Shown here: one piece after another, positions 4,805 to 57,075 of the stretch
How the letters are laid out: each line of letters opens with the position of its first letter
Numbering within the stretch: the stretch's first letter is position 1
Assembly: GCA_963730805.1 (NCBI GenBank)
Contig: CAVSTL010000006.1
Coordinates: forward strand, 124,713 to 188,712
Length of the DNA: 64,000 nucleotides
Direction: 5' to 3'
Origin: an uncultured Acidobacteriota bacterium
Lineage (GTDB): Bacteria; Acidobacteriota; Terriglobia; Terriglobales; Acidobacteriaceae
Program-made: the position numbers and the translations under genes
Notes under the pieces: generated by a model
Database searches by the model: none
The model's input: only the letters and a program-made list of their open reading frames with translations
What the model was told of the DNA's origin: nothing

Positions 4805-7721
<2,917 letters not shown>

Positions 7722-13340: not shown

Positions 13341-13934
13341 ATGAGCGCCAGCCAGACCCTCATTCCATTTTGGATGGAGATAGCCGATCGCGCCGTGCAA
13401 GACGAAGCCCGCCAGCACGCGAACGATAAAGCGCTCGCGGCCCTGGTTGACCAGTATGCTCCGACGCTTTATCGCGTAGCTTTCTCAGTCTTGCGCAGCC
13501 CCTCCGACGCCGAAGATGCCGTGCAGGAGGCGTTTCTGCGGGTGTTGCGCCATCGCGACTCGCTCGACGAGGTGCGCGACCATCGCGTCTGGCTGATTCG
13601 CATTGTCTGGAACATTGTTCTCGACCGCAAGCGCCGCGCAAAGACCCGTCCCGAGACCGACGACGTCGAGGAACTGGCGCGAGTGCTGCCGGCTCACGGA
13701 TTGAGCGCCGAGCAACGCGCCGCGGCCGCACAGCACCACGCCCATGTGCTGGCCTGTGTCGACCAACTGCCCCCCAAGGAACGCCAGGTACTGATGCTAT
13801 CGGCGTTTGAAGAGCTCTCCAGCGTGGAGATTGCCGCGGTTCTGGGCATTACCGAATCGAGCGTCCGTTCCAGACTTTTCCGAGCCCGCAACCTGATGGC
13901 TGACCTGCTCCAGCATCCAAGGAGTCTCCGATGA
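13341..13934 (+). CDS. ECF RNA polymerase sigma factor
   Basis: AEDAVQEAFLR (region 2), WLIRIVWN, LPPKERQVLML...EIAAVLGITESSVRSRLFRAR (region 4). Confidence 0.93.
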   Translation: MSASQTLIPFWMEIADRAVQDEARQHANDKALAALVDQYAPTLYRVAFSVLRSPSDAEDAVQEAFLRVLRHRDSLDEVRDHRVWLIRIVWNIVLDRKRRAKTRPETDDVEELARVLPAHGLSAEQRAAAAQHHAHVLACVDQLPPKERQVLMLSAFEELSSVEIAAVLGITESSVRSRLFRARNLMADLLQHPRSLR

Positions 13935-47849: not shown

Positions 47850-48098
47850 AACCAGCGAATTCAGATTCCTCGGCATGGCGCGCCGGCATGAGTTGACAAC
47901 CTATCGGGCGCTGGTGTCTCTTTGCGCGTGGCGATAGACGCGCCCCATCCCACGTTCTCAAAAATTGGCGGCCCAAGATCGCCCGTACGTATTGAATTCT
48001 TTTCCCGTCTGCCCATCGTTTGCATACCCTGAAGACTTTTGAGCCATTAACGCAACCCATCGGCGGCTGTGCCGTTGATTCATCTTTGGAGACCAGCA

Positions 48099-51000
48099 AT
48101 GACGATCTCGCGTCGCTCCCCCCGAGCCTGGTTGATCTCGCTCGCCCTGTTTGCCCTCTCGCTCAGTTCAACCTGCTTCGCGCAGGCCGACCCGCCGATT
48201 CCTTCGGGATCGATTCGCATCCACTACTTCCGCCCCGACGGCAACTACCTCGGATGGACGATCTACGCCTTCGGCGACACCACGGAACCGAACAATTTCG
48301 GGGCGGGCCCGGTTGCGGTTACAGGGACGGACAGCTTCGGCGCCTGGTTCGATGTCGGCGTTACGTCGGGCGCCGCGAATGTGGGGATTATCGTGCACAA
48401 GGGCAATACCAAGGACCCTGGTCCCAACGAATTCGCGGATCCCGCCACGCAGGGTAATGAATACTGGCAACTCTCGGGCAGCAACGTTCTTCAGACCACG
48501 CAGCCGCCCACCATCCAGGCGACCGATCCGCCCATCCCGGCGGGCAAGGCGCGCATTCACTACAACCGGCCTGACAACAACTACGGGGGATGGAGCCTTT
48601 ATCCCTTTTTGGCGACCACCGACCCCACCGGCAACTGGTGCAACACCGAGGACTATGTCTCGGGCTACGACACCTACGGGGCCTACTACGATGTCGGTGT
48701 CGATCCCAGCCTCAATGGCGGCCAGCTCGGCTTCATCCTCCACAGCTGCCAGCAGAACGTGAAGGATCCCGGCCCTGACATGCACCTGCAGGTCAACCAG
48801 TTCACGTCGGCCTGGGTTCTCTCCGGTTCGGCGACGGTGTTTAATTCGCAGCCGGTTACGGAATACGCCACTGATCCGCCTATTCCCGCCGGGCATGCGC
48901 GCATCCACTACTACCGACCCGATGGGAACTACGCGGGTTGGATACTCTATCCGTTCGGGGCAACCAGCGATCCCACGGGTGACTTCTGCAATACCGACGA
49001 CTATGTTGCCGGCTACGACAGCTACGGCGCTTTCTACGATGTTGGCATCACCACCGGCTCGCTGGGCTTCATCATTCACAACTGCTCCACTGGCGTAAAA
49101 GACCCCGGGCCCGACATGCATCTGCAAGTGCCAGACTCGCTCGAAGCGTGGATCGTGTCGGGCAATGCGACCGTCTTCCTCACGCAGCCCACGCCCGCCC
49201 AGTTACTCAGCGGCGTATTCGACCAACTGCAGGCTTATTGGATGGACTGCCACCACCATAGCCATCCAGCCGCAATATCTCCAATCCGGTTGGACTTATG
49301 CGTTCAACTACAGCCCCACCGCCGGTCTGCAACTTGGTCTCACCGGCATCACCGGCGGCATGTCGATCCCTCTCACGCCTTACTCCGGCTCGTTGACAGC
49401 CGATCAGCTGCTCCGCTATCCGCAGCTCGCGGGGTATGCACTGTTCAAACTCCCGTCGAATCTAGACCCGAGCGTAATTCCGCAGGCTGTGCAGAGTCAG
49501 CTTGCCGTCTCGGCAGTGGGTAGCGACGGCGCGCTCAAATACGCTACCGGTATGCAGATCTTCGGCGAGCTCGACGATCAGTTCTACTACCCCGGCCGCC
49601 TCGGCGTGCTGTTCCGGCGCGCCAACGATCCCACCTGGAATGACTTCCCTGACGACGCCGCGTTCCCGTTGAAGATCAAGTTGTGGGCGCCCACCGCGCA
49701 GAGTGCAAATCTTGTTCTCTTCAACAAGTCCACCGACACTGTGCCCGCCAAAACCGTGACCATGCATTCGCATCACGGCGTGTGGGTAGCCGACGGCGCT
49801 GTGGATTGGACGGGCAAATATTACCTGTTCAATGTGAACGTCTACGTGGCCTCGGCGCAGGCCATTGTGAATAACACCACCACCGATCCCTACTCCGTCG
49901 ATCTCGCGATCAACGGGAGCATGTCCCGGATCACGGATCTGAATGCCGAGTCGACCAAGCCTGACGACTGGGACGAGACCTCCTCGCCGCCGCTCGGCAG
50001 CATCAACGACATGAGCATCTACGAGCTGCACGTGCGCGACTTCAGCGTGGCCGATCCCACGGTTCCCGCCGCGCTCAAGGGCACCTACGACGCATTTGCG
50101 CTTCCTGACGGCAACGGGATGCGCCACCTGCGTTCGCTCGCGCAGTCGGGTCTGAAAGCCGTCCATATCCTACCCAGCTTCCACTTCGACGCTGTCGACG
50201 AAAACAAGGCAAACTGGCAATCGCCCGGCAATCTGTGGCAATTTCCGCGCGACGGCATTCAGCAACAGGCCGCAGTGGCCGCCGTCCAGAACAACGACCC
50301 ATACAACTGGGGCTACAATCCGCATCACTTCATGGCCCCGGAGGGCGCTTACGCCGTCAATCCCGACCGTCGCGTGCGCGAATACCGGCAAATGGTCGCG
50401 GGCCTGCATGGCGCGGGATTGCGCGTGATTCAGGATGTGGTCTTCAACCACACCAGCGCCAGCGGTAACACCTTCGCAGCCAATCTCGACATGCTGGTTC
50501 CCAACTACTACCACCGTCTCGATTCGAACGGGGTGCAGCTTACCGGCTCCTGCTGCGCCGACACGGCCAGCGAACATCGCATGTTCGAAAAGCTGATGAT
50601 CGATACCCTCGTGCTCAACGCGAAGCAATACAAAATCGACGGCTTCCGCTTCGATGAGATGAGCATGCACTTCACCTACAACATGGCCGACATTCGCTCC
50701 GCTCTCAACACTCTCACGCCTGAAGCGGACGGCATCGACGGCAGCAAGATCTACCTTTATGGCGAAGGCTTCCAGATCGGCGAAGCCGCCAATAACTCCA
50801 TCGGCCCCAACGCCAGCCAGATCAATCTCTACGGCTTCGGCATCGGCACATTCAATGACCGCATCCGCGACGGCGTGCGCGGCGGCGGCCCGTTCAGCGA
50901 TTCCCGCGACCAGGGGTTCGCAACAGGGCTTCTCACTGATCCGAGCGCCTACACTGCGGCAGGCACCTCGACTTCCGGGCAGCTTGCGACGCTGCTAGCC

Positions 51001-51876
51001 GAGTCCGACTGGATTCGCGTGGGACTCGCCGGCAACCTGCGCGACTACACACTGATCGATGCGCAAGGGCAGGCGGTCACAGGCTCGCAAATCATCTACG
51101 GCGGACAGCCCGCGGGCTATACGGCCAGCCCGCAGGAAGACGTCAACTACAATTCCGTGCACGACAACCAGACGCTGTTCGACGCGGTGCAGATCAAGTC
51201 CTCGCTGGCCGACGACATTGCCACGCGCACACGCCGCCAGGTGCTCGCCATGAGCGTAATCGCATTAGGGGAGGGCGTTCCATTCTTCCAGGCCGGCGAC
51301 GATCTGCTCCGCTCCAAGGACATGGACAACAACAGCTACGACTCGGGCGACTGGTTCAACAAGATCGACTTCAGCTACCAGACCGCCAACTGGGGCATCG
51401 GGCTTCCCATCGCGAGTCAGAACCAGTCGCAGTGGCCGATCATGCAGCCTCTGCTGGCCAACCCCGCTCTCGATCCCACGCCGCAAAATATCTCTGCGTC
51501 CACCAAGGCGTTCCAGGAGTTCATGGCGATCCGTTACAGCTCCGGCCTGTTCCGTATGTCGACCTTCAACGAGGTGCAGAACAACCTCAGCTTCCTCAAC
51601 ACCGGCCCCAACCAGACGCCGGGGCTGATCGTGATGCGCCTCGATGATCACGGGACGGATTACGGCCGGTACCACCACATCGTTGTGTTCTTCAATGGAG
51701 GAAACACTCAGGTTACGTTCACCGATCCATCCCTGGCCGGGATGTCTCTTCATTTGCATCCCGTTCAGAATGCGTCATCCGATTCCACCGTAAAGCAGGC
51801 GAAGTTCAAATCGCAGCAGGGAACCGCGACCATTCCGGCGCTCACGACTGCCGTCTTTGTCAGCGACAGGGAATGA
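48099..51876 (+). CDS. pulA: Pullulanase-type alpha-1,6-glucosidase (GH13) with three N-terminal CBM41/PUD-like domains; apparent one-base insertion at about 49248-49251
   Basis: Signal peptide; three IHY.RPD.NY.GW repeats; KLWAPTA, IYELHVRDFS, YNWGYNP, DVVFNH, DGFRFD, YGEG, VHDN, DLLRSKDMDNNSYDSGDWFN. Confidence 0.9.
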
Positions 51877-52003: not shown

Positions 52004-54598
52004 TCACAGCCCCGCGTAAATCTGGAACGGCGCCCAGTAGAACGGCTGCTTGAACTTGCCTTCCCCATGCAGCAGCGCAAGCTTCGCCTCTCGAAGCGCA
52101 ACGCTGGGGCTCTTTCCCTCGGCGAGGCCCGCGTACATCTTGTCCATCAGGGGCGGAGTTGAATCGTCGCTGGCTTCCCACAGCGCGCCGATTACGTTAT
52201 GCGCTCCGGCGTGCAGGAATGCCCACGATAGACCCACCAGGCCTTCGCCCGCATACGACCGCGTTCCGCCGCCGTAGCAAGCCGAGATGGTCACGAGTCG
52301 CGCATCGATGGGATGTTGAATGATCTCCCGCGCGTGCAGCTTGAACGAATCCTCCGCCGCTCCGGTGCGCGAAAGAATGATCGCCGAGTCCAGCGGATCG
52401 GTGCGGCTTGCCACGCCATGCGCGACGAAGTGAATGTACGCGTAATCGCGGAGCGGACTCTTGAGATATGCACCCGAATTCGCATCCTTGCGCGCGAAGA
52501 TAGTCTCGTCCGCCGGAGCGAAATGCTTTTCGATCTTCTGCATCTCCGCGGAAGCCATAGGCAGTTCGGGGTAATCGGGGTTCGGCGAAACGGCGTCGCC
52601 CATCAGCAGCAGCCTCCGATTACTCCCGCTCGAAGGCTTGGCGGCCGCCAGCATGTAGAGGGACGGCGCCGACACCACGTTGGCATCTTCGATCCAGTAG
52701 TGCGGAGCGGTGCCGGGCACAATAAGCGTTTCGAAATTCAGCAGGCTAAGTGGCCCGTCGCTGACCACGATCACGTTGCCGTTTGCGGCGATGAGATCGG
52801 CTGCTGGCGCCACCAGCATGCGATAGAGAGCCTCTCCATCGGCGTTGGCCGCGTCCCGTCCCAGACCCGGCCGCAGCAGAGCCTTGCGGTAGCGCTCGAT
52901 CAACGGCGTGAGCTCACGCTGCGCGGGGAGCGTAAACTGCGAAGTCTTCTTTGGCGTGATCGCCCACAGATACGATTGCTTGTCGCCCAGCCAATAGAAC
53001 AGAACGGTGGCCCCGGTCTTGCGGGCAACCTCACCGGCCCGGAACGCTGCCTGCCTCACCGCCGGTTTGTTCGCCTTCACGTCGAGTCCCTGCACCAGCG
53101 TCATCGCGCGGCTCTGATCCGCAGCCGCCAGCGCTTCGTCGGACCTGCCCTGCATCACCAGGAAATGAATGTAGTCGTCGTAGATCGGAGTAGCGTTCGT
53201 GAGGAACGGAAGCTTGGAGCTTTCGTCTTTCAGATCCTCGCGAGCAGCTTCGAAGGTGGTGAGAGCTGTCCGGTACATGTTCTCCGCGGCGACGCCATTG
53301 CCTTGCGTCTCGTAGAGTCTAGCCAACTCGTGCTGCGCTCCCAGGCGCATCGAGGTCTGACTGGCCCGGTTGCGCTCGACGGCGCGGAACATCAATTCCG
53401 CCTGTTCGTCCTGTCGCCGCGCCACTGCGATCTCGCCCTGCGCCAATAAGACGTCCAATTCGTCCAGAGGCTTGCCGCTGACCATCGTAGTCAACTGGTC
53501 GAGATAAGTTCCCGCTTCCTCGAGCTTGCCGCTCATGATATCGGTGTGCGCCAGATCCTCCAGGGCATTGATGATGTCTTGTTGGCTTTTGATCGCTTTC
53601 GCCAACTCAAGAGATCGTTGATAGACCTGGGCAGCGCGTTGCGGATCTCCCATATCCTGGTAGATCAGTCCGGCATTGGCCAGCCACTTGATTTCGTTGC
53701 GGAGACTTCCCAACTTGGTAGCAGCTCGTTCCGCCTCAAGAAACAACTCCAGCGCCTTATCGTTGTCGCCCAGACCGTAGTAGGCAAAACCAAGATTACC
53801 CATTGCGTTTTCGGCCAAATCCTCCCACGCAGATTCCTTCGCAATCCGGTAGGCGGCGTTCGACCAATCAACTGCTTCGTCGTACCTCTCCCCCCGAAGT
53901 GCCGCGACCCCTAAATTAAGCAGCGCCGACGTCTCCGACCGTTTGTGTTGATGGGTCCTGGCAAGGGAAAGACCTTCGAGGAGGACTGGGCGGGATTCGG
54001 CGACTTGTCCGCGCTCGATGGCAAGTACACCGCGAATAATCGGCACATCGCCACAAGCTGCATAAATTGGGGGCTCGCAGAGATGTTGCGCATCTATTAA
54101 CTTCCGGTCCGCTTCTGGGAAGCGAGACATGTACATGTTCGCCATGCCTTCAAGGGTCAGACTCTCAATTCCTGCGTCCCGGTTGGTGAAGATCGATGAC
54201 CCCACAGCCAGCGCGCGAAGGGCGTCTTCATTCATGCCGCGCCAGATCAAGGCGCGTGCCGCGAGAAGCTGGAATCGAGCCGCATTTTCCGGCTCGGTTT
54301 TCAGGAATTGCTGGTAGCCCTGCTCCGCTTCCTCCTGTGTCCTAGTCAGGTCGCCGTGCAGAAAAAGCTGATGAGCGTGCTCGTATGCTGCCTGGGCACT
54401 GCGGGGACGTGTGTCCAACACCGGAACCAGCAGTAGCAGTACAATCGCCCACGCGAGTTGGACTCGCCCTCGAAAAATGTTGCGCCACAAATGATCGAAG
54501 TTAGACGAAGTCCGCGTATTCCGCGGATTATGGCGTCCAAGTGATCTAACGATCGGCGTGGAGGGCGCACCCATGACTAGCCTTCCAATGTAAGACAA
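52004..54598 (-). CDS. TPR-CHAT (caspase-like clan CD) protease with N-terminal hydrophobic segment
   Basis: AWAIVLLLLVPVL TM/signal; TPR array; DGPLSLLNFETL, HFVAHG (His), VTISAC (Cys), GLSWAFLHAGAHNVIGALW, PFYWAPF. Confidence 0.93.
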   Translation of the reverse strand: MSYIGRLVMGAPSTPIVRSLGRHNPRNTRTSSNFDHLWRNIFRGRVQLAWAIVLLLLVPVLDTRPRSAQAAYEHAHQLFLHGDLTRTQEEAEQGYQQFLKTEPENAARFQLLAARALIWRGMNEDALRALAVGSSIFTNRDAGIESLTLEGMANMYMSRFPEADRKLIDAQHLCEPPIYAACGDVPIIRGVLAIERGQVAESRPVLLEGLSLARTHQHKRSETSALLNLGVAALRGERYDEAVDWSNAAYRIAKESAWEDLAENAMGNLGFAYYGLGDNDKALELFLEAERAATKLGSLRNEIKWLANAGLIYQDMGDPQRAAQVYQRSLELAKAIKSQQDIINALEDLAHTDIMSGKLEEAGTYLDQLTTMVSGKPLDELDVLLAQGEIAVARRQDEQAELMFRAVERNRASQTSMRLGAQHELARLYETQGNGVAAENMYRTALTTFEAAREDLKDESSKLPFLTNATPIYDDYIHFLVMQGRSDEALAAADQSRAMTLVQGLDVKANKPAVRQAAFRAGEVARKTGATVLFYWLGDKQSYLWAITPKKTSQFTLPAQRELTPLIERYRKALLRPGLGRDAANADGEALYRMLVAPAADLIAANGNVIVVSDGPLSLLNFETLIVPGTAPHYWIEDANVVSAPSLYMLAAAKPSSGSNRRLLLMGDAVSPNPDYPELPMASAEMQKIEKHFAPADETIFARKDANSGAYLKSPLRDYAYIHFVAHGVASRTDPLDSAIILSRTGAAEDSFKLHAREIIQHPIDARLVTISACYGGGTRSYAGEGLVGLSWAFLHAGAHNVIGALWEASDDSTPPLMDKMYAGLAEGKSPSVALREAKLALLHGEGKFKQPFYWAPFQIYAGL

Positions 54599-54628
54599 TA
54601 TAGGTCTTTGAGAAACCCCGGAGAATAG

Positions 54629-55513
54629 CTATCCTCCGCCCGGCGGTGTCGTGCTGCCGTTGTTCTTCCCGCTCACACACATCACCGTCCCGCTGGCGAT
54701 ACACCCCATGTTGACCTCAATCATGTTCAGCTCGATGAGCGTCGTCTTGGGAATGCCCTCTTCGTGATCCGAGTGGTAAATCCGGACCACCCCCAGGTGC
54801 ACCTGGCCAAAATCAGGAATATCGAACACGTTCCCGATGGGCTGCCAGGGAGCTGAAGTCTTGATCGATTTGACCAGGGAATACACAGTGGACTCCGTAC
54901 CGTCCTCTGTGACCGGGTCCGATCCATAGCGCTCCTGGAGATCCGCGGAGATGTTGCTGCCGCCTTCGCGGAAAATCTTAAACCGATCGGCGAGACGCTT
55001 CAGAAATGCGTCATTTTTCGTGAAAGGAATCTTGCAGGAATGCTTATCCGGGTCCAGGAGGTCCAGATCCAGTTCCACCTCAACCGGGTATCCGCCGAGG
55101 CGCAGGTTATAGAACTGCGATCCCAGGAAGGTAACCCTGGGTACGTGCCCTTCTTCCTCATAAAGAGGGTGCTCGGTCGAGATCTGCGCCACTACCCGAT
55201 CCGCGGTCACCACGTTCAGGATGTTCAGGTTCTCCACGACCGCCGTAGAAAGCGACTTGAAGCCGCGGCCGGGCTTTTTCTCCTGGTCCTCCAGGTGGCC
55301 CGCCGCCTGCGTGTGCGCTGCGCCGTAAGACACGATTCCTTCGACGCGGAATGGCTTCGCCTGCTGGGACTCGTATCCCCCTTCCGGCTTTACTTGAGCA
55401 TGGGCCTGGCGCTCAATCTTTGAGGGGTAGGGCAGCTTCAGTTCTCCATGCACCGCCGAGGCTTCCGCATGGTATCTGTGGTTCCTGATCGTCTTGCCGT
55501 TTTCTTCGGCCAT
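54629..55513 (-). CDS. Hypothetical protein of unknown function, beta-rich, no signal peptide
   Basis: 294-aa ORF placed 40 bp after the anti-sigma and 30 bp before the CHAT ORF on the same strand. Confidence 0.8.
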   Translation of the reverse strand: MAEENGKTIRNHRYHAEASAVHGELKLPYPSKIERQAHAQVKPEGGYESQQAKPFRVEGIVSYGAAHTQAAGHLEDQEKKPGRGFKSLSTAVVENLNILNVVTADRVVAQISTEHPLYEEEGHVPRVTFLGSQFYNLRLGGYPVEVELDLDLLDPDKHSCKIPFTKNDAFLKRLADRFKIFREGGSNISADLQERYGSDPVTEDGTESTVYSLVKSIKTSAPWQPIGNVFDIPDFGQVHLGVVRIYHSDHEEGIPKTTLIELNMIEVNMGCIASGTVMCVSGKNNGSTTPPGGG

Positions 55514-55553
55514 TATCTATCTCAACTCGCTTTCAGAAGCTCGTCGCGAGCTT

Positions 55554-56238
55554 CTACTCATTGAAGTGAACATCAAGAGTGCGCCGGCCGAGATCGGTTC
55601 GCGCGCCCTGGGGAGAAATGCCGGCTATGTTCAGGGTGTAGGAGCCTTCCTGCAGCCCTGTTCCCGGAATCGTCAATGAGAGTGTCCCGCTCTGCGGCGC
55701 GGTGACGGTCCTTGTCCAGAATCGCTTGCCCTGCGGATCATTCAAAGCAAATTCGTAGGACGAGTAGTTCGGTTGTTGAGGAAGTTCGATCAGGACATTT
55801 GCGCCCTGTTTGCGGTCCGCTTGCACCACCGTCGGCTCAGACCCGCGCGTATCAGCATGCAGCGAACTCGGGGCAATTATACTTGGCTCTTCGGCCGCCG
55901 AGCGTAACGACGGGATGGTGGAGAAATTCTGGAAGGCAATCACGGCCAGGAGCGCCGCAAAGGCGGGCGCGGCCAGGGCCGGCATAGCGAACACACTCCA
56001 CCAGGGCTTCTTCTCTTTGGCCGGAACCGGACGTGCAGGCGCCTGCACTGCCGCCCTGGCTTTCAATTCCGGAAGCTGGACCTTCGCCTCGCTCAAGAAA
56101 ACATTTCCAGCGCGAACGTCCAAAGCGCACTCCGTGCACTCAAACATATGCTCCTCAAAGGCTTCCTTCAGCTCGGGGGACAGTTCATCGAGTAGATAGC
56201 GTTCCGTTGCCATCTCTTGTACTGCTTCGTCATGATTC
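55554..56238 (-). CDS. Zinc-finger (ZAS/zf-HC2) anti-sigma factor with TM and extracytoplasmic domain
   Basis: FEEHMFECTEC (HxxxCxxC); TM PAFAALLAVIAF; beta-rich C-terminal domain. Confidence 0.9.
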
Positions 56239-56296
56239 ATCGTCTTACCCCGCTTTCCCGACACTGAAAGATGGTGCGGAGGCCCGCTCAAACGTT

Positions 56297-56881
56297 TCAG
56301 GCCTTTTTTGTCGCCATTCCCGGCCCGATGCGCTTCAGATATTCGACCTTGAACTCACTTTTGGCGCGGAAAAGCAGGACCCTGAGATATTCCCGGTCCA
56401 CGCCGAAATCCCGGCAGACCTCATCGCGATCGCGCTCGTCCAGGAACACGGCTTGCAGCAAGTCCCGATCGCGCGGGGGCATATCAATCAGGATCTCCCG
56501 AATTTTTACCTTAAGTTGTTGAGCCGTCACGTGTCCCAGGGCATCCATGCCGGTGGCCGGGAGTTCCGGCTGACCCTCGTCGTCGAGCGAATCGGTGCGC
56601 GAACTGGCCCGGTAATGCTCGAACAGCACGTTGTTGCAAACCGTGTTCACAAAGGCGCCGAGTTTTTCCGGCTGGCGCAGCACGCCTCCTTTTCGCAACG
56701 CGGAAAATACCCGCGCAAACGTCTCCTGGCGCACGTCCTCGATGGCCTGCGGCGAACGCAGGCGGGACCGCAGCTTAAGGTGGAGCAACTCGGTAAAGTA
56801 ACGCACGAAATGGTCCTGCGTGGCGAAGTCGCCGGCGCATAGACTATCGACGTAACCTGCATCGAATGCGTGGAATTGCAA
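56297..56881 (-). CDS. ECF RNA polymerase sigma factor
   Basis: TTG start after GGAGAG; IEDVRQETFARVF, FVNTVCNN, MPPRDRDLL...YLRVLLFRAK. Confidence 0.9.
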   Translation of the reverse strand: MQFHAFDAGYVDSLCAGDFATQDHFVRYFTELLHLKLRSRLRSPQAIEDVRQETFARVFSALRKGGVLRQPEKLGAFVNTVCNNVLFEHYRASSRTDSLDDEGQPELPATGMDALGHVTAQQLKVKIREILIDMPPRDRDLLQAVFLDERDRDEVCRDFGVDREYLRVLLFRAKSEFKVEYLKRIGPGMATKKA

Positions 56882-57075
56882 GGCGCTCTCCGAGACTTGC
56901 GAGAACGCAAGTATAACAGCCGAAAAACAGATAACGAATAGCAAGTCTCACTTGACTGCTCGCGCCGGGCCGGTTCGGCCCCTCGCTCGCGGCAAGAACC
57001 CTTCGTCCCCAGCGGCGGTACAATGGCGTCTGCCCCTCAACTCCAGCGTTAAGAGCTGGTGAAAGCTGTGCTCTC

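Follow-up and report, generated by a model that had tools for sequence, protein, structure and literature searches.

A conserved four-gene cassette of Acidobacteriaceae that may couple a predicted periplasmic TPR-CHAT protease to an ECF sigma factor

The 64,000-nucleotide stretch analysed here (hereafter the window; contig CAVSTL010000006.1 of an uncultured Acidobacteriaceae bacterium) carries at positions 52004-56881 a cassette of four co-oriented minus-strand open reading frames (ORFs), which encode, in order, a sigma factor of the extracytoplasmic function (ECF) type, a zinc-binding anti-sigma (ZAS) factor, a DUF8256 protein and a caspase-like protease that joins tetratricopeptide repeats to a CHAT domain (TPR-CHAT). 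The cassette is tentatively read, at slightly less than an even chance, as a four-component ECF sigma relay and a split version of Myxococcus DdvA/DdvS, in which CHAT would cleave the anti-sigma in trans. Periplasmic TPR-CHAT coupled to an ECF sigma is already known from DdvA/DdvS; new here are the division of the same parts over two proteins, the other phylum and the extra gene. The cassette's conservation extends over at least hundreds of species in a family dominant in soil; should the model hold, ECF sigma signalling would widely receive input from caspase-like proteases beyond CRISPR and defence islands. The coordinates of the four genes were confirmed, and the tight spacing and shared orientation described in the first-pass annotation of this DNA were borne out, with spacers of 56, 40 and 54 nt (sigma side first):

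56297..56881, minus strand: ECF-type sigma factor, 194 aa, TTG start (TIGR02937 above cutoff; start from orthologue alignment)
55554..56240, minus strand: ZAS-type single-pass anti-sigma factor, 228 aa (zf-HC2 above cutoff)
54629..55513, minus strand: DUF8256 (PF26784) protein, 294 aa, without signal peptide (database family assignment of homologues)
52004..54574, minus strand: predicted exported TPR-CHAT caspase-like protease, 856 aa, ATG start, GGAAGG ribosome-binding site (Pfam)

A DUF8256 profile search of species-representative bacterial genomes returned at least 476 matching places, the best 80 of which were used as loci, and the gene order of each locus was read by tblastn with all four cassette proteins. 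These best 80 are all from Acidobacteriota, mostly Acidobacteriaceae/Terriglobales (for example Terracidiphilus, Granulicella and Acidobacterium), and 77 of the 80 species-level genomes hold all four proteins, the anti-sigma orthologue included, in the same order and on the same strand; genes outside the four vary between loci. Among cultured strains, Granulicella aggregans M8UP14 (L038) has the cassette. Neighbourhood conservation, which had been set as a test for the operon, was therefore found, and a four-gene order and orientation repeated across so many loci places the arrangement far beyond chance. The same cassette also houses a divergent DUF8256 subfamily, 31-35% identical to the window protein. 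At three loci from Terracidiphilus metagenome-assembled genomes (L045, L049 and L086, positions ~4900-6900), DUF8256 and TPR-CHAT are preceded by a different sigma pair: a 217-aa ECF sigma, which scores 51-59 bits with TIGR02937, and a protein of 393-403 aa that has TPRs at its C terminus; as the architecture is kept there, the coupling of the modules survives non-orthologous replacement of the sigma pair.

The cassette is transcribed in soil, since two soil metatranscriptomes carry contigs on its locus. Identical contigs lie on all four genes in one of them, with one contig across the anti-sigma/DUF8256 junction, and contigs of a related strain span both the sigma/anti-sigma and the anti-sigma/DUF8256 junctions. 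These contigs favour the co-transcription on which the first-pass annotation's proposal depended, with DNA carry-over possible. The anti-sigma-to-DUF8256 spacer is 16-60 nt in most loci. A longer spacer of 115-185 nt was observed in nine (L019, L023, L028, L030, L033, L039, L044, L050 and L052), and ~35-45 nt ahead of where DUF8256 begins these long-spacer lineages share the conserved box (C)CG(A/T)TAGAAT(T)(C)C, which may be an internal promoter for DUF8256 and CHAT.

Co-variation among the parts was assessed from pairwise distances over 69 cassettes (the window plus 68 loci), controlled for sigma distance. The anti-sigma outer domain gave the two highest inter-protein values, with the CHAT domain (partial r 0.49) and with the C-terminal TPRs (partial r 0.45). 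For DUF8256, the partial r was 0.39-0.40 with the N-terminal TPRs, and its N-terminal half gave 0.14 with the CHAT domain. As weak evidence, this pattern would fit TPRs that handle DUF8256 and a CHAT domain that handles the anti-sigma.

The protease of the window has an identical 856-aa counterpart in the database, and its parts are as follows:

54416..54469, minus strand: N-terminal export signal or signal anchor, GRVQLAWAIVLLLLVPVL then DTRPRSAQA/A (hydrophobicity)
53045..54403, minus strand: TPR array, residues ~58-510, ~450 residues (TPR_12, TPR_1 and TPR_MalT matches)
52016..52840, minus strand: CHAT domain (PF12770, E=1e-47, residues 587-861 of the 864-aa ORF)
52418-52420, minus strand: catalytic His719, in HFVAHG (checked by translation)
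52277-52279, minus strand: catalytic Cys766, in ISAC (checked by translation)

Translation upheld both the intact catalytic pair (HFVAHG and ISAC) and the N-terminal hydrophobic segment (GRVQLAWAIVLLLLVPVL) that had been reported from the raw letters. The His is conserved in 71 of 72 full-length orthologues (one gap) and the Cys in all 72, and both residues stand in the HG and xxAC contexts that define clan CD/CHAT; the window protein is thus a predicted caspase-like protease. The TPR array is modelled as helical repeats at a predicted local distance difference test score (pLDDT) of ~90, and it holds two cysteines, Cys166 and Cys174, that are invariant across the 72 orthologues; a disulfide between them would be compatible with an exported protein.

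Three properties of its N terminus predict that the TPR-CHAT body is exported, whether it is cleaved or stays anchored there. All 72 orthologues have a hydrophobic core, within an uncharged stretch of median 16 aa that usually ends Pro-Leu; the flanks carry a median net charge of +3 on the N-terminal side versus -1 on the C-terminal side, the former exceeding the latter in 63 of 72; and an AxA-like site follows the core in 45 of 72. A lipoprotein was also considered and rejected, as no canonical lipobox occurs in any of the orthologues.

An AlphaFold model of the TPR-CHAT protein, built from 26 orthologues, was searched against the whole PDB with Foldseek. The best matches were the two DdvA entries, 8RW5 and 8ROT (E 2.7e-13, ~870 aligned columns); the third-best was Csx29 of the type III-E craspase (E 1.5e-9), and several separase entries matched at E about 2e-9 to 4e-7. 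A tie to DdvA, Csx29 or separase at the level of sequence was rejected, since phmmer and PDB profile searches return TPR proteins only.

The anti-sigma factor, candidate substrate of this protease, was likewise resolved into parts:

56127..56150, minus strand: zinc-finger motif H31-x3-C35-x2-C38, HMFECTEC (translation; conserved in orthologues)
55920..55994, minus strand: transmembrane segment, residues ~83-107, Pro/Ala-rich, consensus PAFAxPAFA (19-residue Kyte-Doolittle maximum 2.26)
55557..55919, minus strand: predicted periplasmic outer domain, 121 aa (conservation profile)
55536..55554, minus strand: short stem-loop GAAGCTCG-CGA-CGAGCTTC overlapping the stop codon (folding)

The zf-HC2 match is 25.1 bits against a cutoff of 22.2, and the antisigma model NF052375 matches at 4.5e-8, under its cutoff. 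With an N-terminal H-x3-C-x2-C domain encoded in a gene that begins 56 nt past the sigma stop codon, the protein falls in ZAS class I, for which binding of both sigma and zinc is predicted. The cytoplasmic HxxxCxxC finger, one membrane span and ~120-aa outer domain listed in the first-pass annotation all reappear here, as HMFECTEC, the single hydrophobic segment at residues ~83-107 and the 121 aa that follow it. Conservation is highest in the ZAS region (mean 0.76) and averages 0.70 in the membrane segment, while the cytoplasmic linker, variable and Ala/Pro-rich, is the least conserved part (0.33). Unlike this linker, the juxtamembrane region and the outer domain are conserved, including a juxtamembrane motif QN..(I/L)P.LR....EP(R), which in the window protein reads QN..IPSLR..EEP within the juxtamembrane segment of residues 102-125; the outer domain has a weak FlgD Ig-like match under cutoff. 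Helix-destabilising residues in a membrane span favour cleavage by a site-2 protease.

As the zinc finger must be cytoplasmic for sigma binding, the C-terminal domain of the anti-sigma is placed in the periplasm. Together with the predicted export of TPR-CHAT, this puts the protease and the anti-sigma outer domain in one compartment, and so agrees with the co-localization on which the earlier proposal of a CHAT site-1 step had been staked.

The stem-loop at the anti-sigma stop is of modest stability (-18.5 kcal/mol, z = -1.8) with no T-run after it, and similar hairpins were seen in L007, L018, L034 and L040. A known RNA element between the cassette genes was rejected, as a Rfam scan of the intergenic regions gave no match at gathering scores and this hairpin is just modestly stable. 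The stem-loop might adjust how strongly the two gene pairs are expressed relative to each other.

The third gene encodes a full-length match to DUF8256, the PF26784 family being carried by 120 of 120 homologues among the matches listed (the local Pfam copy is without that model). Kinship to the choice-of-anchor P domain is seen in its N-terminal half, and 25 of 26 members match NF040603 (best E 4.3e-9). The structural model is confident (pLDDT 87) and mostly beta, with long hairpins and three short helices. No convincing fold match was found in the PDB or in the viral structure library BFVD, the best PDB fold matches being outer-membrane barrels only (E 2e-3, TM-score <0.2), and the PDB sequence/profile search gave no match. 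A gasdermin or other pore-former was accordingly rejected as its identity, there being neither a PADLOC match nor a match by PDB fold, by sequence or profile, or by viral fold. The window protein has no hydrophobic segment or signal, and of 299 family members with a locatable N-terminal motif only two bear an export signal, both of the twin-arginine translocation (Tat) type; a cytoplasmic location in the cassette is therefore predicted. The suggestion that CHAT might process the 294-aa protein is disfavoured on these grounds, since that protein is predicted to be cytoplasmic and CHAT periplasmic, and since it is not gasdermin-like.

The DUF8256 profile search collected 1142 clusters at 50% identity, mostly stand-alone proteins of ~280-330 aa, along with members in which DUF8256 forms the N terminus of a longer protein fused to a subtilase, TIR, CHAT or multi-pass membrane part. 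Since effectors usually carry their sensor or regulatory domains at this position, DUF8256 at the N terminus of such varied effectors appears to be a recurrent accessory domain, and the fusion pattern is that expected of a shared regulatory domain on interchangeable effectors. Three CHAT fusions were found (P0309, P0340 and P0301). At two loci (L095:2529-5989 and L098:2418-6092), a DUF8256-CHAT fusion of ~900 aa, without TPR or membrane segment, lies directly upstream of a bacterial gasdermin (bGSDM) gene, which PADLOC recognizes at 5.6e-44 and 1.1e-41; the two proteins are P0309 and an independently found relative that is 66% identical. No gasdermin was found beside a further fusion, P0340, whose contig is too short. 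Proteases that activate gasdermins may have in DUF8256 a new accessory or sensor domain. Among the other fusions, the subtilase P0291 (L096:6001-9729) adjoins a 242-aa unknown protein, an integrase and a trypsin-endonuclease protein; the TIR fusion is P0294 (L093:4871-6925) and the multi-pass membrane fusion P0296.

Two rare variants with Tat signals, P0260 and P0305 (L091:6055-7930 and L094:262-1206), are each encoded immediately upstream of a TPR-CHAT of the type seen in the window; the one in L091 is a second copy next to a signal-less one, which makes a five-gene cassette. Tat hitch-hiking of DUF8256 on the CHAT signal was considered and rejected, since the twin-arginine is not conserved there and is absent from the window sequence. 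An apparent DUF8256-TM-TPR-CHAT fusion (P0376, 1101 aa; L092:6001-9306; TM, transmembrane) was discarded as proof of topology: it was judged a frameshift artefact, probably from an indel, because dnaA lies in three pieces on the same long-read contig and because the normal DUF8256 C terminus and stop are present in another frame. Even if real, it would link CHAT to DUF8256 and not to a ZAS domain. In the cassette, DUF8256 is most likely a dedicated partner of the protease module, as a regulatory, sensing or inhibitory subunit. The tie of DUF8256 to gasdermin-associated CHAT proteases, to subtilases and to TIR proteins offers a first hold on the function of a family of >1,100 clusters. A literature search on DUF8256, on this cassette, and on CHAT with Acidobacteria and sigma factor found no paper in the collection searched.

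The sigma factor consists of sigma-70 regions 2 and 4 only and passes the ECF superfamily model TIGR02937 (45.8 bits, cutoff 42.9, residues 44-199), as befits an ECF (group IV) sigma; Sigma70_r2 and r4_2 match in the right order, both under their Pfam gathering scores. Identity to its counterparts in the 77 orthologous loci is 61-93%, and the TTG start at 56881 is backed by an N terminus, MQFHAFDA, that is conserved among orthologues. ECF54 was rejected as its literature group, as that group is actinobacterial and without anti-sigma. Upstream of the gene lies one further feature:

56910..56918, minus strand: promoter-like element of extended -10 type, TGT-TATACT, lying 28 nt before the start codon of sigma

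TATACT is found in 67 of 78 orthologous upstream regions, and TG-n-TATACT, or a variant with one mismatch, begins 34-35 nt before the sigma start codon in most loci; TGCGTCCTC follows the element. Such conservation of a housekeeping-type extended -10 is unusual for an ECF sigma operon. When the orthologous regions were compared, no conserved ECF-type -35/-10 was found within 220 nt upstream of sigma, and an autoregulated ECF-type promoter was rejected there, the housekeeping-type extended -10 alone being conserved. The element is a putative housekeeping-type promoter, and its fixed distance, together with the lack of a conserved ECF-type promoter, suggests constitutive production of all four proteins as a standing sensor.

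From these observations we infer a course of events in which the topology and the type of promoter are predictions, and in which the signal, the regulon, the role of DUF8256 and every proteolytic step are conjectural. The operon would be transcribed constitutively from the housekeeping-type extended -10 promoter, and the ZAS domain of the single-pass anti-sigma would hold sigma at the membrane. TPR-CHAT would be exported, either Sec-cleaved or N-terminally anchored, so that its TPR array and caspase-like domain become periplasmic neighbours of the anti-sigma's 121-aa outer domain. A signal received via the TPR array would then lead His719/Cys766 to cut the outer or juxtamembrane region of the anti-sigma in trans, as the site-1 step; the truncated anti-sigma, with its proline-rich membrane helix, would be cut by an RseP-type site-2 protease encoded elsewhere; and the freed sigma would switch on its regulon. 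The cassette separates the protease from its candidate substrate, which in DdvA are one polypeptide, and trans-cleavage is therefore directly testable by co-expression with dyad mutants.

Several points weigh against this relay. Cleavage of the anti-sigma by CHAT is conjectural here and, in DdvA likewise, self-cleavage is just proposed. The kinship to DdvA is structural only, as DdvA goes undetected by sequence, and the CHAT part of the model is poorly modelled (pLDDT 50-65). DUF8256 is predicted to be cytoplasmic yet co-varies most with the N-terminal TPRs (partial r 0.39-0.40), and elsewhere it is fused to cytosolic CHAT proteases; a partnership within one compartment would suit both observations better than the periplasmic model, which does not account for them, and if the co-variation of DUF8256 with the TPRs is real, the compartment mismatch becomes sharper. 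Mirror-tree correlations are themselves weak evidence, being confounded by phylogeny and rate, and the metatranscriptome contigs may include DNA carry-over. The site-2 protease and the sigma regulon were not identified, no search for site-2 protease genes having been made outside the cassette; the one trait that suits such a pathway is the Pro/Ala-rich membrane span.

The same evidence can be arranged with sensor and output reversed, which we consider unlikely: the anti-sigma would sense by its own outer domain and be cut by a conventional site-1 protease, and DUF8256 and TPR-CHAT would form a separate envelope effector or processing module, co-expressed with sigma or a target of it. DUF8256 and CHAT are indeed the tighter and older pairing, which persists when the sigma pair is replaced; the 115-185-nt spacer with a TAGAAT-like -10 before DUF8256 in several lineages suggests a separate promoter; and the Myxococcus DdvS regulon includes a CHAT-containing effector. 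However, in most loci that spacer is 16-60 nt and is bridged by RNA contigs, the conserved upstream promoter is of housekeeping rather than ECF type, a sigma-like gene and a gene in the anti-sigma position accompany DUF8256-CHAT in 80 of 80 loci, and the CHAT domain is the part with which the outer domain of the anti-sigma co-varies best. Rather improbable, in our judgement, is an all-cytoplasmic relay as in craspase and gasdermin systems, with TPR-CHAT tethered by its N terminus to the inner face of the membrane, DUF8256 as a cytoplasmic sensor and the cytoplasmic linker of the anti-sigma as the CHAT substrate. That arrangement would suit the lack of an export signal in 297 of 299 DUF8256 members with a locatable N-terminal motif, the covalent fusions of DUF8256 to cytosolic CHAT, subtilase and TIR proteins, its co-variation with the TPR array, and the fact that Csx29, Csx30 and the craspase-associated sigma are all cytoplasmic. 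It is opposed by the positive-inside rule, which is strongly N-in/C-out (+3 versus -1; N > C in 63 of 72), by the short hydrophobic core followed by a Pro-AxA segment like that of a signal peptide, by the periplasmic location of the nearest structure, DdvA, by the low conservation of the linker in question (0.33), and by the Tat export signals of the two DUF8256 variants beside this type of TPR-CHAT.

The most improbable of the readings is an anti-phage or cell-death module, in which DUF8256 would be a toxic effector that CHAT activates in gasdermin fashion and the sigma pair would only regulate its expression. Defence-like settings do occur in the family: two DUF8256-CHAT fusions adjoin bacterial gasdermin genes, and there are a TIR fusion and a subtilase fusion beside an integrase. 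In the gasdermin loci, however, DUF8256 belongs to the protease and not to the effector, it has no PADLOC match and no gasdermin or other pore-former fold, and in the cassette it is predicted to be in a different compartment from CHAT. Moreover, the cassette is surrounded by housekeeping genes whose synteny is conserved (UPF0182, pullulanase) and occurs widely within a single family, and thus looks vertically inherited and not a mobile island. A long shot, finally, is that DUF8256 serves caspase-like and other effectors as a regulatory or sensor domain not recognised before, one common to gasdermin systems and the sigma relay, and that in the cassette the periplasmic TPR array takes the normally cytoplasmic DUF8256 as its ligand (for instance as a sign that a membrane has been breached or that kin cells have lysed), the exit of DUF8256 triggering CHAT cleavage of the anti-sigma; if so, a self-protein 'danger' sensor would be wired to transcription.

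The cassette is flanked by a convergent pullulanase-like gene and a divergent gene for a UPF0182 membrane protein. The former (48069-51876, plus strand) is broken up into a pair of ORFs (48069-49523 and 49165-51876) that overlap in different frames; the shift falls right after AYWMD, a similar split is seen in the closest relative, L007, and either a frameshift from an assembly indel or a pseudogene would account for it. Another ECF-like sigma gene lies at 13485-13892 (plus strand), with 31% identity to the cassette sigma across 139 residues. PADLOC returned TPR matches only on the cassette, Tandem Repeats Finder saw no array-like repeat within the 64-kb window, and no cas genes were found in any gene neighbourhood inspected. 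The relay had been put forward as a CRISPR-independent link from CHAT to sigma: its independence stands, in that no CRISPR was found in the window, but the idea has precedent in DdvA/DdvS and in the CHAT neighbours of ECF54 (PMC8999054).

Among known systems, the cassette resembles DdvA/DdvS and the Csx29/Csx30 plus CASP-sigma set, yet it fails the defining feature of each, having no ZAS-TPR-CHAT polypeptide, no Cas7-11 or array and no gasdermin. In DdvA of Myxococcus a single polypeptide combines a zinc-finger domain in the cytoplasm, one helix in the membrane and a TPR-CHAT in the periplasm (PMC11506125), and DdvA's signal-induced CHAT self-cleavage has been proposed to replace the site-1 protease before RseP, a step that its authors describe as unvalidated (PMC11506125). 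Shared with DdvS/DdvA of Myxococcus xanthus (8ROT, 8RW5; PMC11506125, PMC6061681) are the ECF sigma, the CHCC/HCC zinc-finger anti-sigma with a single membrane span, and a TPR-CHAT (periplasmic in DdvA, predicted so here) with a His/Cys dyad and a separase/craspase-like fold, proposed as the site-1 protease ahead of RseP. A DdvA-type trait is a CHAT active site without the three-helix motif that is completed across the dimer. Unlike in DdvA, two genes, parted by that for DUF8256 in all of the 80 loci, encode the ZAS/transmembrane part (228 aa) and TPR-CHAT (856 aa), the anti-sigma bears a 121-aa outer domain of its own, DUF8256 is a fourth conserved gene, and genes of CRISPR or of the antiphage system CBASS are not adjacent; outside the TPRs no sequence similarity is detectable. 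DdvA-like fusions are limited to Myxococcota plus one Comamonas (PMC11506125), whereas the cassette is found in Acidobacteriaceae/Terriglobales, with at least 476 matching places.

The type III-E craspase set comprises the TPR-CHAT protein Csx29, the sigma inhibitor Csx30, Csx31 and the ECF sigma CASP-sigma (PMC10028731), and cleavage of Csx30 by Csx29 establishes that a TPR-CHAT can gate an ECF sigma (PMC10028731). Both sets have four parts: beside the TPR-CHAT and the ECF sigma there are an inhibitor that binds sigma and a conserved protein of unassigned role, and in both proteolysis is thought to lift the inhibition of sigma. The cassette differs in its lack of Cas7-11, CRISPR array and RNA guide, so that its activation must be by something other than target RNA; its protease has an export signal, its inhibitor is a classical membrane ZAS anti-sigma, and its DUF8256 protein has no detected similarity to any PADLOC model.

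As in anti-sigmas subject to regulated intramembrane proteolysis (RseA/DegS/RseP and RsiW/PrsW/RasP), the cassette anti-sigma is single-pass with a cytoplasmic sigma-binding domain, its outer domain would block site-2 cleavage, and helix-destabilising residues lie in its membrane span; here, however, the candidate site-1 enzyme is an operon-encoded caspase-like cysteine protease and not a PDZ serine or PrsW-type protease. Gasdermin systems with a CHAT or other caspase-like activator share the pairing of DUF8256 with CHAT, seen as the N-terminal DUF8256 of the CHAT proteases at L095 and L098. In contrast to them, the cassette contains no bGSDM gene, its 294-aa protein matches neither the PADLOC bGSDM model nor a gasdermin fold, and its likely substrate would be the anti-sigma and its output transcription. 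ECF54 neighbourhoods of Actinobacteria hold CHAT, subtilase or carboxypeptidase genes (PMC8999054, PMC7826278), so that there too an ECF sigma is genetically linked to a CHAT protease proposed as its regulator; ECF54 belongs to another phylum and is without anti-sigma, whereas the orthologous cassette is never without a ZAS anti-sigma.

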